Assembly: GCF_050920415.1 (NCBI RefSeq)
Contig: NZ_CP169309.1
Reading direction: 5' to 3' (one strand)
Length of the DNA stretch: 64,000 bases
Source: Escherichia coli
GTDB taxonomy: Bacteria > Pseudomonadota > Gammaproteobacteria > Enterobacterales > Enterobacteriaceae
The position numbers and the translations under genes are program-made. The notes below the pieces were generated by a model, which saw only the letters and a program-made list of their open reading frames with translations, searched no databases and was not told where the DNA came from. Numbering within the stretch: the first letter of the stretch is position 1; every line of letters starts with the position of its first letter. Below are positions 25,085 through 30,936 of this stretch, in pieces.

Positions 25085-26329
25085 ATGGCAACACTAACCA
25101 CCACCCAAACGTCACCGTCGCTGCTTGGCGGCGTGGTGATTATCGGCGGCACCATTATTGGCGCAGGGATGTTTTCTCTGCCTGTGGTCATGTCCGGGGC
25201 GTGGTTCTTCTGGTCAATGGCGGCGCTGATCTTTACCTGGTTCTGTATGCTGCATTCCGGCTTGATGATTCTGGAAGCTAACCTGAATTATCGAATCGGT
25301 TCGAGTTTTGACACCATAACCAAAGATTTGCTAGGCAAAGGCTGGAACGTGGTCAACGGCATTTCCATTGCCTTTGTGCTCTACATCCTGACTTACGCCT
25401 ATATTTCTGCCAGCGGTTCGATTCTGCATCACACCTTCGCGGAGATGTCGCTGAATGTTCCGGCACGAGCTGCAGGTTTTGGTTTTGCGCTACTGGTGGC
25501 GTTTGTGGTGTGGTTGAGCACCAAAGCCGTCAGCCGGATGACGGCGATTGTGCTGGGGGCGAAAGTTATTACCTTCTTCCTCACTTTCGGCAGTTTGCTG
25601 GGGCATGTGCAGCCTGCGACATTGTTTAACGTCGCGGAAAGCAATGCGTCTTATGCACCGTATCTGTTGATGACCCTGCCGTTCTGTCTGGCCTCATTTG
25701 GTTATCACGGTAACGTGCCGAGCCTGATGAAGTATTATGGCAAAGATCCGAAAACTATCGTGAAATGCCTGGTCTACGGTACGCTGATGGCGCTGGCGCT
25801 GTATACCATCTGGTTGCTGGCGACGATGGGCAACATCCCTCGTCCGGAGTTTATCGGCATCGCCGAGAAGGGCGGTAATATTGATGTGCTGGTACAGGCG
25901 TTAAGCGGCGTGCTGAACAGTCGTAGTCTGGATCTGCTACTGGTCGTGTTCTCAAACTTTGCGGTAGCGAGTTCGTTCCTCGGCGTAACGCTGGGTTTGT
26001 TTGACTATCTGGCAGATCTGTTTGGTTTTGACGACTCTGCCCTGGGCCGCTTTAAAACGGCGTTGCTGACCTTTGCACCGCCTGTCGTGGGTGGCCTGCT
26101 GTTCCCGAACGGATTCCTGTACGCTATTGGTTATGCTGGCTTAGCGGCTACCATCTGGGCGGCAATTGTTCCGGCGCTGTTGGCCCGCGCATCGCGTAAA
26201 CGCTTTGGCAGCCCGAAATTCCGTGTCTGGGGCGGCAAGCCGATGATTGCACTGATTCTGGTGTTTGGCGTTGGCAACGCACTGGTGCATATTTTATCGA
26301 GCTTTAATTTGCTGCCGGTGTATCAGTAA
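25085..26329 (+). CDS. mtr: tryptophan-specific permease Mtr
   Basis: 414-aa polytopic membrane [36 protein letters not shown]... Confidence 0.93.
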
Positions 26330-26332
26330 TCA

Positions 26333-26436
26333 GCGGTGCCTTATCCGACATTTCTGCTGCCTACACAATGCCTGATGTGCTTCGCTTATCAGGCCTAGGT
26401 AGGACAGCGTTGCCAGCTCGGATAAGGCTTCCCACG
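26333..26436. repeat. REP elements
   Basis: gcctgatgtgcttcgcttatcaggcctag and ggataagg palindromic units. Confidence 0.75.
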
Positions 26437-26446
26437 TTAAAACACA

Positions 26447-27454
26447 CTATCCCAGTAACTCTTCCTTAACATCCATCGCCAGCTCAAACGAATGCAGGCG
26501 CGCCTGGTGATCGAAAATCTGCCCGTTAACCATAATCTCATCCGCGTCGGTTTCGCGCAGGATCGACTGCAAACCATGACGCACTTTCGCTTTATCACCC
26601 ACCAGCGACATATTCAGCGCCTGCTGCACGCCATACTGCTCAGACGGTGACCAGAACTGATCCATATTTTGAATCGGTGGCGGCAGTTGCCCGGTTTCAC
26701 CGCGGCGCAGCTTCACAAAGGCTTGCTGCATTGAGGTAAACAGAAATTCAGCGTCGCGGTTGCTGTCGGCGGCGATAATATTGATGCACACCATCGCGTA
26801 CGGTTTCTCCAGCCGCGCTGACGGTTTGAAGTTACTGCGATAAAGATGCAGCGCCTGGAACAGCATATCCGGTGCGAAGTGTGAGGCAAACGCGAACGGC
26901 AGACCAAGCTGCGCCGCCAGTTGTGCACTGTAAAGACTGGAGCCTAATAACCACACGGGGATTTTCTCGCCATAGCCCGGTACAGGGCGCACATGCGGAT
27001 TGGGATCACGGGCGTCAAACCAGTCCACCAGCTCCGCGACATCGCGGGGGAAATTATCAATATCGCCGCTCATATGGCGACGTAGTGCCATCATTGTCCG
27101 TTGGTCACTACCTGGCGCACGACCCAGCCCCAAATCGATTCGCCCCGGATAGAGCGTATTGAGCGTACCGAACTGTTCGGCAATCACCAACGGTGAGTGG
27201 TTTGGTAACATCACGCCGCCAGACCCCAGATGCAGCGTGGTGGTATTTGCCGCCAGATAGCCAATCAATACTGATGTTGCAGCACTGGCAATGCCAGTCA
27301 TATTGTGGTGTTCCGCCAGCCAGTAGCGATGATAGCCGCGCTTTTCAGCCAGACGGGCGAGGTCGAGAGAGTGGGAGAACGCTTCTCGCGCTGAAGAACC
27401 TTCGGGGATGGGGGCCAGATCGAGTAGCGAAAACGCAATGGTTTTATCAGTCAT
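26447..27454 (-). CDS. yhbW: luciferase-like flavin-dependent monooxygenase family protein YhbW
   Basis: 335-aa [53 protein letters not shown]... Confidence 0.85.
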
Positions 27455-27534
27455 AACAGCTCACTTTGTTACCGATTAATCTTTAATACTGCATTAAAGG
27501 GTAGTTAAAGTTGTTAACAAAGTGAGCTATTTGC

Positions 27535-28413
27535 TTAGGCTTGCAGTTCCAGCCCAGCCAGCCGTCTCCAGTAGCCATTACAGTCGCTGTTTGCCGTCAA
27601 CGGGAGTGGTGCAGCGCCATTTTCATTAGCGCGGAAGGCGTCGAGCATCGCGAAAGTGTCAGTACCCTGCGGTGACAGGCGGACCACATCAACCAGCCCC
27701 TGCATGGATGCCAGCTCGTTACCGAGGTTGTACACGTAGCCGCTCATGGTCTGAATGCCATTGAGCACAAACACTTGTTGGTTTTCCTGCGACAGCACGT
27801 TGCGCCCGTTCGGATACTTAATGCAGCAGGTTTCACACTCATCTTTTGGGCGGTCTTCCGAACGCGCGGTAAAGCAGCGGGCGGAGTAGGCCAGCGGCAG
27901 ATGACCGTAGCTCAAGACTTCCACTTCAAACTGGTTGCGAATGCCCAGCTCATCGCACTGATTAAGCAGATTCACCAGCCAGTCGCGGGAAAGTTCCACC
28001 GGCATACACCAGCGCATCATTCCCTGTTTGAGCAATATTTTCAGCGTCACCGCGTTGTAGCAGTTCAGAGCGTGTCCGGCGACGAACGGCAGTTTGCGCT
28101 CAGCGCACATATTCACCACGCCGAGATCGCTGGCTTCAATCAGAAACTCACCGTTCTCAACATAGCGTTTCAGTTCGCCCAGTTCGGAGGATGCCTGCAC
28201 CAGCGCCAGCGTGGAGAGCACAATCTGCTTGCCACTTCCGGCGAGCGATTTTGCCATCTCCAGCCAGTCGCCAACTTTGGTTGCCCGGCGTTTGCTACAG
28301 ACCGCTTCACCGAGATAAATCACGTCTGCGCTGCTGGCGGCGGCCTGCTGATAAAAATCTTCCAGCGTCTCTTTTGGCCAGTACCACAGCACCGGCCCTA
28401 AGGAATATTTCAT
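27535..28413 (-). CDS. ubiV: U32-family protein UbiV (YhbV), O2-independent ubiquinone biosynthesis
   Basis: 292 aa from MKYSLGPVLWYWPKE; conserved cysteines (CxxxxxC...CC). Confidence 0.85.
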   Translation of the reverse strand: MKYSLGPVLWYWPKETLEDFYQQAAASSADVIYLGEAVCSKRRATKVGDWLEMAKSLAGSGKQIVLSTLALVQASSELGELKRYVENGEFLIEASDLGVVNMCAERKLPFVAGHALNCYNAVTLKILLKQGMMRWCMPVELSRDWLVNLLNQCDELGIRNQFEVEVLSYGHLPLAYSARCFTARSEDRPKDECETCCIKYPNGRNVLSQENQQVFVLNGIQTMSGYVYNLGNELASMQGLVDVVRLSPQGTDTFAMLDAFRANENGAAPLPLTANSDCNGYWRRLAGLELQA

Positions 28414-28421
28414 TACTTTTC

Positions 28422-29417
28422 TCACTGCCATTTACGGTGATACGCGCCAAGAGTGGTTTGTGTGCCTTCGGACATCGACCCGAGCGTCTCCATCCACGCG
28501 CTTTGCGGCACGAAGTTTTGCGGATCGGCCTTACAACGGTCGATAGCCTGACGCCAGACTTTCGCTACCTGGCTGACATACGCAGGGCTACGCTGGCGGC
28601 CTTCAATTTTCACCGAAGCGATATTCGCCGCCATTAACTCCGGCAGTAGCTCAAGGGTATTGAGACTGGTTGGTTCTTCCAGCGCATGATAGCGCTCGCC
28701 GTCCACCAGATAACGCCCTTTACACAGCGTCGGATAACCTGCGTTTTCGCCGTCCTGATAACGGTCGATCAGCACTTCGTTCAGGCGGGATTCCAGCCCC
28801 TGCGGCGTTTGCTGCCAGCGCACGAAACGGGCCGGAGAACATGCCCCCACGGTGTTGGGCGACTCACCCGTCAGATACGACGACAGATAGCAACGACCTT
28901 CCGACATAATGCACAGACTGCCGAAAGCGAACACTTCCAGCGGTACAGGCGTGACCCGCGCCAGTTGTTTCACCTGATGAATCGATAACACGCGCGGCAG
29001 CACCACGCGGGCAACGTCAAAATGGCGATGATAAAAGTGAATCGCCTCTTCATTGGTCGCCGAAGCCTGCACTGACACATGACGCTCAATATGCGGGTAT
29101 CGCTGGGCGGCGTACTCCAGCATGGCGAGGTCGGCGAGGATCAGCGCGTCGGCACCCAGCTGCGCCGCCATATCCACGGCGCGCTGCCAGCGGGCGTAAC
29201 CGTCCGGATGCGCAAAAGTGTTAATCGCGATGTGAAGTTTGCGGCGATGTTGATGGACAAAACTCACCGCTTCCTGCAATTTTTTCTCGGTAAAGTTAAG
29301 GCCGGCGAAGTGACGGGCATTGGTATCATCTTTTAGCCCGATATAAACAGCATCTGCGCCGTTTTCGATGGCCGCCTTAAGCGCCGGGAGATTTCCGGCA
29401 GGGCAGAGCAGCTCCAT
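28422..29417 (-). CDS. ubiU: U32-family protein UbiU (YhbU)
   Basis: 331 aa from MELLCPAGNLPALKAAIENGADAVYIG. Confidence 0.85.
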   Translation of the reverse strand: MELLCPAGNLPALKAAIENGADAVYIGLKDDTNARHFAGLNFTEKKLQEAVSFVHQHRRKLHIAINTFAHPDGYARWQRAVDMAAQLGADALILADLAMLEYAAQRYPHIERHVSVQASATNEEAIHFYHRHFDVARVVLPRVLSIHQVKQLARVTPVPLEVFAFGSLCIMSEGRCYLSSYLTGESPNTVGACSPARFVRWQQTPQGLESRLNEVLIDRYQDGENAGYPTLCKGRYLVDGERYHALEEPTSLNTLELLPELMAANIASVKIEGRQRSPAYVSQVAKVWRQAIDRCKADPQNFVPQSAWMETLGSMSEGTQTTLGAYHRKWQ

Positions 29418-29625
29418 AATTTTTCCTGAAGGGTGCGCTATCAAAACGCAAAAATGTTAACGAACTGGGATTTTAGTTAACCTTGCAGCGACAATTTTTG
29501 ATTTAAGGCAGTTAAAGTTGTATTGGTGGTAGCAGCAATTTCATATGGAATTGTTGATTTATACCGCTATGTTATTTTTCTGATATGGCAAAATAGGATG
29601 ATTGTTGAAACAGGGAGTAAAACTC

Positions 29626-30150
29626 GTGTTGGATAAACTGCGTTCCCGTATTGTGCATTTGGGGCCATCTCTGTTGAGTGTACCGGTAAAACTGACGCCA
29701 TTTGCGCTAAAACGCCAGGTTCTTGAGCAGGTCTTAAGCTGGCAATTCCGCCAGGCGCTGGATGATGGCGAGCTGGAGTTTCTTGAAGGCCGCTGGTTAA
29801 GTATTCATGTGCGTGATATTGACCTGCAATGGTTTACCTCGGTGGTGAATGGCAAACTGGTCGTTAGCCAGAACGCGCAAGCTGATGTGAGTTTTAGTGC
29901 CGACGCCAGCGATCTTCTGATGATTGCGGCGCGTAAACAAGATCCGGACACGCTCTTCTTCCAACGTCGGCTGGTGATTGAAGGCGATACGGAGCTGGGG
30001 TTATATGTGAAAAACCTGATGGACGCCATTGAATTGGAGCAAATGCCGAAAGCCTTACGCATGATGCTGCTGCAACTGGCGGATTTTGTTGAGGCGGGAA
30101 TGAAAACCGCGCCTGAAACCAAACAGACATCGGTAGGTGAACCATGCTAA
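29626..30150 (+). CDS. ubiT: SCP2-domain lipid-binding protein UbiT (YhbT)
   Basis: 174 aa from a GTG start (MLDKLRSRIVHLGPSLLSVP...), divergent from ubiUV. Confidence 0.8.
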   Translation: MLDKLRSRIVHLGPSLLSVPVKLTPFALKRQVLEQVLSWQFRQALDDGELEFLEGRWLSIHVRDIDLQWFTSVVNGKLVVSQNAQADVSFSADASDLLMIAARKQDPDTLFFQRRLVIEGDTELGLYVKNLMDAIELEQMPKALRMMLLQLADFVEAGMKTAPETKQTSVGEPC

Positions 30151-30647
30151 TTCGAGTAGAAATTCCCATTGATGCGCCGGGTATTGATGCCCTGCTGCGT
30201 CGTTCATTCGAAAGCGATGCGGAAGCGAAGCTGGTTCACGATCTGCGTGAAGATGGCTTTCTGACGCTGGGGCTGGTGGCGACAGATGACGAAGGTCAGG
30301 TCATTGGCTATGTGGCATTTAGTCCGGTTGATGTGCAGGGCGAAGACCTGCAATGGGTCGGCATGGCACCGCTGGCGGTAGATGAAAAATACCGTGGACA
30401 GGGGCTGGCACGCCAACTGGTCTATGAAGGACTCGATTCGCTTAATGAGTTCGGCTATGCCGCAGTGGTGACGCTGGGCGATCCGGCGCTGTACAGCCGT
30501 TTCGGCTTTGAACTGGCGGCGCATCACGATCTGCGTTGTCGTTGGCCGGGCACTGAAAGCGCCTTCCAGGTACATCGTTTAGCGGATGATGCGCTGAACG
30601 GCGTAACCGGTCTGGTTGAGTATCACGAACACTTCAATCGCTTTTAA
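30144..30647 (+). CDS. yhbS: GNAT-family N-acetyltransferase YhbS
   Basis: 167-aa ORF with acetyl-CoA binding motif [10 protein letters not shown]. Confidence 0.85.
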
Positions 30648-30936
30648 TCTCCGGGGTTTGCAGGCTGCTCAACAGTTCTGCAAACCCTGCGCCTTCCGCT
30701 ACCAGACGCTCTTTTTGCCGTTTGGTCAGTTGCTTGATGCGATATTCCATCCGTAACGCCAGCGAGCGGTCGCCCACTGGCGCGGAAAACGCCAGCGTCA
30801 GTTCTCCTTTCCCGCGCAGTGCTTTCGCCCCTTTTCCGCTTTGGTGCTGCTGATAGCGGCGTTCAACATCCGTGGTGATCCCGGTATAAAGCTTATTGTC
30901 GGCGGTACGGATCAAGTAAAGAAACCAGGGTGTCAT
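30634..30936 (-). CDS. yhbQ: GIY-YIG domain protein YhbQ
   Basis: 100 aa from [31 protein letters not shown]. Confidence 0.85.

Follow-up and report, generated by a model that had tools for sequence, protein, structure and literature searches.

The 64,000-nucleotide (nt) stretch of Escherichia coli chromosome analyzed here (the window; contig NZ_CP169309.1) carries yhbW, which encodes a luciferase-like flavoprotein, directly beside ubiV, ubiU, and ubiT, the genes for O2-independent ubiquinone synthesis. The order is mtr > < yhbW < ubiV < ubiU, ubiT > yhbS >, and an initial annotation of this DNA had singled out yhbW as a possible partner of the UbiUVT pathway. Our analysis indicates that yhbW and ubiUV are very probably two independent transcription units that have become neighbors by chance in Enterobacteriaceae; their adjacency is an ordinary accident of gene order. 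According to published work, Fnr turns on the ubiU-ubiV and divergent ubiT-yhbS operons at low O2; yhbW would be transcribed from an activator-dependent promoter of its own within the 80-nt spacer that separates it from ubiV. Published work also shows that MarA, SoxS, and Rob (RamA in Klebsiella and Salmonella) induce yhbW together with nfsA, nfsB, mdaB, and acrAB under xenobiotic or oxidative stress. By analogy with its family, YhbW would be supplied with reduced flavin mononucleotide (FMNH2) by a separate NAD(P)H:flavin reductase and would use O2 to oxygenate a small molecule. It would have no role in O2-independent ubiquinone synthesis. An O2-requiring, stress-induced enzyme is unlikely to be part of a pathway that avoids O2. 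The genes, the pathway, and the regulation of both units are already known or published.

Gene order and distribution of yhbW and ubiUVT

Within Enterobacteriaceae, a block of ~9 kb, deaD-mtr-yhbW-ubiV-ubiU/ubiT-yhbS-yhbQ-yhbP(-yhbO), is collinear wherever the locus extends far enough. This within-family comparison rests on the best 80 of 318 matches, all from Enterobacteriaceae, in a scan of genome contigs with UbiU. Because the whole block from deaD to yhbO is preserved, the adjacency of yhbW and ubiV there informs no further than shared descent. A protein homologue search with UbiT reached Escherichia, Shigella, Salmonella, and Citrobacter among the matches listed, and wider sampling came from the PLSDB plasmid collection, with its megaplasmids, chromids, and mislabelled chromosomes. 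Four PLSDB “plasmids” of 4-5 Mb (NZ_OL790812.1, NZ_AP026896.1, NZ_CP141089.1, and CP125156.1) are evidently whole chromosomes and act as genome-level controls; the chromosome-sized records come from P. mirabilis, A. caviae, E. coli, and K. pneumoniae.

Outside the family, yhbW and ubiUV are found apart. No YhbW-like sequence lies within 7-8 kb of ubiUV at any of 14 loci from other families (tblastn, E <= 1e-3), and none of eight yhbW-family contexts outside Enterobacteriaceae has a U32 or SCP2 neighbor. Proteus mirabilis keeps yhbP-yhbQ-yhbS-ubiT/ubiU-ubiV, after which a convergent fimbrial operon follows; at the same position, fhuE comes next in Duffyella, and a TPR protein gene and secDF in Aeromonas. 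P. aeruginosa has moa-ubiU-ubiV-ubiT-alkaline phosphatase, in agreement with the published order, and ubiU-ubiV is accompanied by ubiT on either side in Thiothrix, Aquabacterium, Cupriavidus, Ralstonia, Azospirillum, Labrenzia, Acidithiobacillus, Sinorhizobium, Paracoccus, and Agrobacterium. The Providencia yhbW, 86% identical, has a DUF1508 gene on one side and a LysR regulator gene on the other, and homologues at 47-54% identity were found on a Bryobacteraceae metagenome contig, on one Bacillus-like contig and one gamma- or betaproteobacterial contig, and in Serratia, Gemmobacter, and Inquilinus. On replicons that hold both genes, yhbW and ubiU are 1.1 Mb apart in Aeromonas caviae, 1.46 Mb in C. 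metallidurans CH34, 0.63 Mb in C. campinensis, and 0.22 Mb in Ideonella, and the 4.09-Mb records of P. mirabilis contain ubiU with no YhbW match at >=60% identity. The synteny across Proteobacteria for which the initial annotation had suggested a search is confined to Enterobacteriaceae.

The phyletic distribution of the protein family points the same way. Flavobacterium, Hymenobacter, Peribacillus, Paenibacillus, Deinococcus, and Nonomuraea have YhbW homologues of 47-55% identity, another family member occurs in Bryobacteraceae, and the 185 matches at E <= 1e-40 include Streptomyces, Priestia, Rhodococcus, Haloferax, and Haloarcula. To our knowledge, Firmicutes, Actinobacteria, Deinococcus, Bacteroidota, and haloarchaea are ubiquinone-free groups. 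As far as these homologue listings go, the YhbW family extends beyond ubiquinone producers and lacks the phyletic restriction expected of a UbiUVT member. Published work has reported ubiTUV only from ubiquinone producers. Pelosi et al. described co-occurrence among ubiT, ubiU, and ubiV and left yhbW unmentioned, and no ubiUVT paper in the searchable literature mentions the gene.

The gene assignments in the window are themselves firm. Open reading frame (ORF) calling and RefSeq annotation are concordant on the layout (Table 1), in which yhbW adjoins ubiV and is co-oriented with ubiUV, with ubiT divergent, at the positions and on the strands that the initial annotation had given. Its identification of yhbW as luciferase-like, ubiU and ubiV as U32-family genes, and ubiT as an SCP2-family gene likewise held, since all four proteins pass the cut-offs of curated models: UbiU scores 560 bits against NF047963 (cut-off 440), UbiV 364 bits against NF047965 (cut-off 275), UbiT 153 bits against NF047962 (cut-off 47) with an additional PF02036 match (E = 8.7e-20), and YhbW 732 bits against the NF007802 equivalog (cut-off 540). 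The conserved cysteine clusters that it had noted are real. Cys169, Cys176, Cys193, and Cys232 of UbiU and Cys39, Cys180, Cys193, and Cys197 of UbiV, which are experimentally defined [4Fe-4S] ligands (PMC6747719), are all present and are conserved in 13-14 of 14 distant loci. Transcribed in the same direction as ubiV, yhbW starts 80 nt past the stop codon of that gene. The yhbS start overlaps the ubiT stop by 7 nt (30144-30150), and a published report assigns yhbS and ubiT to one operon (PMC10470549 Fig. S8). Over 26300-30700, the window is 100% identical to E. coli NZ_CP169399.1, and 5421 of the 5426 complete E. coli genomes contain this region with an identity of >=95%.

Table 1 Features of the yhbW-ubiUVT locus (window positions unless a locus is named).
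Feature	Position	Strand	Basis
yhbW coding sequence, 335 amino acids (aa); luciferase-like monooxygenase (LLM) family TIM-barrel flavoprotein, MsnO8 subfamily	26447-27454	-	ORF, PF00296, NF007802, TIGR03558, 4US5, RefSeq
ubiV, 292 aa; U32-family [4Fe-4S] subunit of O2-independent ubiquinone hydroxylase	27535-28413	-	NF047965, Cys ligands, PMC6747719, annotation
ubiU, 331 aa; U32-family [4Fe-4S] partner of UbiV	28422-29417	-	NF047963, Cys ligands
ubiT, 174 aa; SCP2 lipid-binding accessory factor, divergent from ubiUV	29626-30150	+	PF02036, NF047962, RefSeq
Fnr site F1, TTGATTTAAGGCAG; controls ubiUVp	29498-29511	+	sequence verbatim; PMC10470549
Fnr site F2, TTGATTTATACCGC; controls ubiTp2	29554-29567	+	sequence verbatim; PMC10470549
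ubiV-yhbW spacer, 80 nt; putative yhbW promoter and 5′ untranslated region	27455-27534	-	sequence; comparison of 77 Enterobacteriaceae loci
Marbox-like site, ATAGCTCACTTTGTTAACAA; putative MarA/SoxS/Rob/RamA site	27511-27530	-	consensus match, spacing, literature
Inner inverted repeat, CTTTAATGCAGTATTAAAG; 8-bp hairpin, candidate promoter element with -10-like hexamers CAGTAT (27486-27491) and TATTAA (27483-27488)	27481-27499	-	folding, conservation
Outer inverted repeat, 5′ arm, AATAGCTCACTTTGTTA	27515-27531	-	folding, conservation
Outer inverted repeat, 3′ arm, TAACAAAGTGAGCTGTT; last 17 nt before the yhbW ATG, ribosome-binding region	27455-27471	-	folding, conservation
mtr	25085-26329	+	ORF calling, RefSeq annotation
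yhbS; GNAT acetyltransferase	30144-30647	+	ORF, Pfam, RefSeq
DGC-domain protein gene	L104 10359-10769; L103 5893-6342		

The genes that do recur beside ubiUVT include Crp/Fnr regulators, nnrS, denitrification genes, nrdDG, ubiD-ubiX, and genes for a DGC-domain protein and a small alphaproteobacterial Cys-containing protein. Outside Enterobacterales, the ubiUVT loci L101-L110, on megaplasmids and chromids, usually stand amid Crp/Fnr, NnrS/NnrU, nar, nor, nos, and nrdDG genes, and this company of anaerobic-respiration genes is a much stronger contextual signal than any for yhbW. In Labrenzia (L106 8875-9261), Sinorhizobium (L108 8917-9363), and Agrobacterium (L110 8919-9302), the gene for a protein of 127-148 aa overlaps the ubiV stop; the protein has a conserved CxC motif and no Pfam match, and the further copies are 18-19% identical to the first. 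The same three loci carry ubiD-ubiX divergently beside ubiT-ubiU-ubiV. Ralstonia solanacearum and Cupriavidus necator pHG1 encode, next to ubiU-ubiV-ubiT, a putative zinc-binding protein with a DGC domain (PF08859). Closer to E. coli, the yhbS-ubiT pairing survives in Proteus (L097 6761-7785) at a locus without yhbW, and yhbS is therefore a better-conserved neighbor of ubiT and ubiUV than yhbW is.

Regulation of the two units and the ubiV-yhbW spacer

The two units also differ in their reported regulation. Both published Fnr 14-mers, F1 and F2, are found verbatim in the divergent ubiU/ubiT intergenic region. The ubiUV genes have been described as an Fnr-dependent two-gene operon that is on from 0.1% O2 to anoxia, and mutation of F1 abolishes anaerobic UbiV production (PMC10470549). 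For yhbW, purified RamA shifts the Klebsiella promoter and activates it 6.9-fold in vitro (PMC4310594). Published work further reports that deletion of ramA in Salmonella lowers yhbW expression 3-fold, along with that of mdaB, nfsA, acrAB, and tolC; that yhbW is a member of both the Rob and the SoxS regulons; that its expression clusters with that of azoR, nfsA, nfsB, and fpr; and that vanillin stress in E. coli induces YhbW 77-fold, more than any other protein. The literature thus places yhbW in the MarA/SoxS/Rob/RamA regulon and ubiUV under Fnr and anaerobiosis, rather than under the shared regulation that the initial annotation had raised. That annotation had itself named a lack of co-conservation and co-regulation as the outcome that would speak against a functional link between yhbW and ubiUVT; neither was found, the literature being the source for regulation, and the proposed link gains no support. 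Its caveat that adjacency by itself proves no such link was correct.

Comparison of 77 Enterobacteriaceae loci suggests that the spacer between ubiV and yhbW holds a promoter. In all 67 loci that matched the three motif patterns, a GCTCAC element (GCTCACTTTGTTA) stands exactly 30 nt from the motif TTTAATGCAnTATTAA, which is conserved across loci with a variable base at its center. The surrounding distances are loose: the whole spacer ranges from 75 to 351 nt (351 nt in E. albertii, L006), the ubiV stop lies 1-278 nt from the first element, with insertions that resemble repetitive extragenic palindromic (REP) sequences and others, and the second element lies either 28-30 nt or 83-147 nt from the ribosome-binding region. 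Rigid spacing within a module combined with free insertion outside it is the pattern of an activator site plus a core promoter. We infer a yhbW promoter module in which the marbox-like site is followed by a -10 element near the CAGTAT hexamer and a transcription start near 27479. The marbox-like site overlaps the 5′ arm of the inverted repeat discussed below, holds the perfect palindrome TTGTTAACAA, and lies 19 bp from CAGTAT, a spacing that would fit the class II rule which Martin et al. reportedly set out in 1999. Nor does yhbW look like a third cistron of the ubiUV operon: the junction is not tight (its length varies and its insertions are lineage-specific), a rigid promoter-like module lies inside it, RamA activates the yhbW promoter in vitro, and the operon was published as ubiUV.

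The spacer shows further lineage-specific features. In Klebsiella, Raoultella, Kluyvera, Kosakonia, Phytobacter, and Franconibacter, the -10-like motif is separated from the ribosome-binding site by an insert of ~65 nt, which in some Kluyvera is as long as ~120 nt (reference coordinates L010 9930-10010, Klebsiella). The insert occupies the same site in L003, L009-L014, L017, L020, L023, L027, L030, L032, L044, L050, L057, L061, L064, and L070. It is conserved at its base (TTCTGGCC...GGCTGGAA) and in its tail (GAAGACCTTCAATCTGATGACnATGCTGTA), which contains a 4-codon mini-ORF, and its hairpin varies at the tip. It had no match in an Rfam search, and its interpretation as a dispersed repeat was rejected within the loci compared, where it occurs once per locus and at this site only. 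Palindromic units resembling REP sequences or bacterial interspersed mosaic elements (BIME) fill the convergent mtr-yhbW gap (26330-26446). Several loci from Citrobacter, Salmonella, and Pseudocitrobacter (L021, L029, L038, L047, L055, L067, L073, and L079) have similar units between ubiV and the yhbW module as well, on the ubiV side of the 5′ arm.

Several points weigh against the separation of yhbW from ubiUV. The sample outside Enterobacteriaceae is small (14 ubiUV loci and eight yhbW contexts) and consists partly of megaplasmids and chromids. A terminator search found no intrinsic terminator in the spacer, so that Fnr-driven read-through into yhbW is possible from sequence alone. The marbox-like site (ATAGCTCACTTTGTTAACA) departs from the consensus AYnGCACnnWnnRYYAAAYn at three positions, and because at that stringency the consensus matches at chance frequency (139 matches in the window versus 136 expected; 64 versus 54 in locus L002), the match was given little weight by itself. 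Neither a mapped yhbW transcription start or marbox nor a quinone profile of a yhbW mutant was found in the searchable literature. In a published assay, purified YhbW had no FMNH2/O2 activity with vanillin. Finally, UbiU-UbiV is published as a [4Fe-4S] hydroxylase with prephenate as the oxygen donor, and the literature names no electron acceptor for it, so that a redox partner is formally missing.

This missing acceptor is the one formal opening for the lead of the initial annotation, a link between YhbW and UbiUVT in ubiquinone metabolism. YhbW might then be the electron acceptor or oxidant partner of UbiU-UbiV, or a back-up hydroxylase that uses O2 when cells pass between aerobic and anaerobic growth. 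In favor of such a role, YhbW is a redox flavoprotein, and its gene is adjacent to ubiV on the same strand, with no terminator between them in the window; all informative Enterobacteriaceae loci show the adjacency, as do 5421 genomes of E. coli. We nevertheless judge such a role to be very improbable. The YhbW family is common in groups not known to make ubiquinone, and the regulatory logic is opposite, Fnr and anaerobiosis on one side and oxidative and xenobiotic stress on the other. On an RNA reading through from ubiUV, moreover, a predicted stem would hide the yhbW ribosome-binding site. None of the 14 ubiUV loci outside the family carries yhbW, including that of P. aeruginosa, in which published work showed ubiUVT alone to be essential for anaerobic ubiquinone-9 (UQ9), and the published analysis of ubiT, ubiU, and ubiV co-occurrence is silent on yhbW. 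The premise that a flavin monooxygenase would be a natural UbiUVT partner is weak as well, YhbW being a TIM-barrel, FMNH2-dependent, luciferase-like protein and not known to be related to the aerobic ubiquinone hydroxylases UbiI, UbiH, and UbiF. A narrower version, in which the Enterobacteriaceae YhbW was recruited as a redox partner of UbiU-UbiV, for example as acceptor of the two ring electrons in prephenate-dependent hydroxylation, is scarcely credible, and hardly more can be said for its corollaries that YhbW is expressed by read-through from the Fnr promoter and that other lineages use a different partner. Two independent units thus remain the preferred reading. The false lead is thereby cleared: position gives no ground for counting yhbW as a candidate for the O2-independent ubiquinone pathway.

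An inverted repeat at the yhbW ribosome-binding site

The spacer is a nested palindrome in which a 17-bp outer repeat encloses an 8-bp inner repeat over the -10-like region. Folded as RNA, the outer repeat gives a 17-bp stem that runs up to the base immediately preceding the yhbW AUG, with a minimum free energy (MFE) of -27 kcal/mol (z = -3.4; 1 of 200 shuffled sequences was as stable). Each of the 75 distinct sequences from Enterobacteriaceae has pairing between the arms in its MFE fold, even where an insertion puts 83-147 nt between them. The core stem is invariant, with 13 and 33 predicted pairs in two analyses and no compensatory changes; covariation is absent for this reason, and we therefore do not claim an RNA element. 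In Providencia, where yhbW lies away from ubiV, the ribosome-binding core AAAGTGAGCCGTT-ATG is kept and no complementary 5′ arm is found, the best duplex reaching -10.2 kcal/mol versus -24.0 kcal/mol in E. coli. An Rfam search of the spacer returned no family, its only match being a spurious one to mir-1285 (26.6 bits; gathering score 56). The stem was also considered as an intrinsic terminator of ubiUV and rejected, since no U-tract follows it and its loop is >=43 nt. No description of the inverted repeat was found in the searchable literature.

Judged from its sequence, the repeat could block yhbW translation on ubiUV read-through RNA. Such RNA would carry both arms, and the stem would bury the yhbW ribosome-binding site, a form of regulatory anti-coupling that is compatible with two independent units and that we put forward tentatively, as a possibility rather than an expectation. 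Equally tentative is its consequence that YhbW is not made anaerobically, while transcripts from the gene's own promoter, which would begin between the arms and lack the 5′ arm, are translated. The stability of the stem, its end at the base before the AUG, and its persistence in every distinct sequence despite the 83-147-nt inserts all favor this proposal. So do the one-sided substitutions, which mostly preserve pairing (A-U to G-U; U-A and U-G), with 22 compatible sequence-by-pair cells and one broken cell in the short-spacer alignment; the Providencia gene, which is not downstream of ubiV and has the ribosome-binding core without the complementary arm; and the lack of a terminator to stop read-through. 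Against it, the invariant core stem offers no compensatory double changes, two lineages carry uncompensated defects (two unpaired positions in Kosakonia L070 and an A-C mismatch in L073), and the 5′ arm may be kept merely as an activator site and the 3′ arm merely as a ribosome-binding site. It is unlikely that the repeat acts instead at the DNA level, as two inverted marbox-like or operator half-sites (AGCTCACTTTGTTA) that flank the core promoter and are bound by a MarA-family or dimeric regulator. The resemblance of the 5′ arm to the marbox consensus would fit such an operator, as would the reversed match, with three mismatches, of the ribosome-binding-proximal element in Providencia, the perfect palindrome TTGTTAACAA, and the invariance of both arms across genera. 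However, an arm-to-arm distance that ranges from ~45 to >160 nt is hard to square with two operator sites held in phase, activation cannot come from a site that abuts the ATG, and marbox matches at this stringency occur at chance level. MarA-family activators bind as monomers, which also counts against a two-site arrangement.

If the stem works as predicted, it would provide compact insulation of adjacent, oppositely regulated genes without a terminator. YhbW is among the most strongly induced proteins of the Mar/Sox/Rob regulon, and the inverted repeat in its spacer is a small, testable side observation.

YhbW and comparison with known systems

YhbW is a full-length member of the LLM family. 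PF00296 (Bac_luciferase) is its sole Pfam match (140 bits, cut-off 27.9; E = 1.3e-40; residues 8-302), its NCBIfam matches are all to LLM or luciferase families, and it scores 444 bits against TIGR03558, the MsnO8-family LLM model (cut-off 167). The closest solved structure is 4US5 (E = 5e-50, residues 7-328). Models of F420-dependent LLM subfamilies give 18-50 bits against cut-offs of 167-470, which leaves YhbW outside these subfamilies. Family comparison makes an FMNH2-dependent, MsnO8-type two-component monooxygenase the most likely function of YhbW. Its reductase could plausibly be NfsA, NfsB, or Fre, and NfsA and NfsB, which are co-regulated with yhbW, are a reasonable guess; both are homologous to Frp and FRase I, the Vibrio reductases that feed bacterial luciferase. 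In published work, a yhbW knockout grew slightly more poorly on vanillin, and overexpression of yhbW suppressed the essentiality of sigma-E.

Two side observations concern relatives of YhbW. In Serratia marcescens (L092/L093 4149-7990), the gene for a 51%-identical homologue directly follows a LanM-like lanthipeptide synthetase gene (DUF4135 + LANC_like), which suggests that some members of the YhbW family act in peptide natural-product tailoring. A 539-aa NCBI protein (P0056) combines a YhbW part (99% identity, covering 87% of the query) with the reductase domains PF00667 (FAD_binding_1) and PF00175 (NAD_binding_1); it represents a chimera created in assembly or annotation, or else a natural flavin-reductase fusion.

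Among known systems, yhbW behaves like the genes of the MarA/SoxS/Rob/RamA regulon (nfsA, nfsB, mdaB, acrAB, tolC, and others), with which it co-varies in E. coli, Salmonella, and Klebsiella, and its activation by RamA is direct in vitro. The protein resembles MsnO8 (PDB 4US5) in its full-length alignment, its subfamily score, and its Bac_luciferase TIM-barrel domain. MsnO8 is an epoxidase of the Streptomyces mensacarcin polyketide cluster and is served by a dedicated flavin reductase, whereas yhbW is a solitary stress-regulon gene without a biosynthetic cluster or an adjacent reductase. With LuxAB, SsuD, and their relatives, the two-component FMNH2-dependent LLM enzymes, YhbW shares its Pfam family, weak N-terminal matches to LuxA and LuxB, and the expected need for a separate flavin reductase, for which the co-expressed NfsA and NfsB offer candidates; it nonetheless falls far below all the cut-offs of the LuxAB and SsuD family models. 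The aerobic hydroxylases UbiI, UbiH, and UbiF are, like YhbW, flavin-dependent and O2-using, but they are class A single-component FAD/NAD(P)H enzymes with a Rossmann fold, unlike a TIM-barrel protein that accepts FMNH2. With the UbiU-UbiV-UbiT system itself, yhbW has its chromosomal position and its strand in common with ubiUV and nothing more: YhbW contains neither a U32 nor an SCP2 domain, carries no Fe-S cysteine motif, and has a single cysteine.

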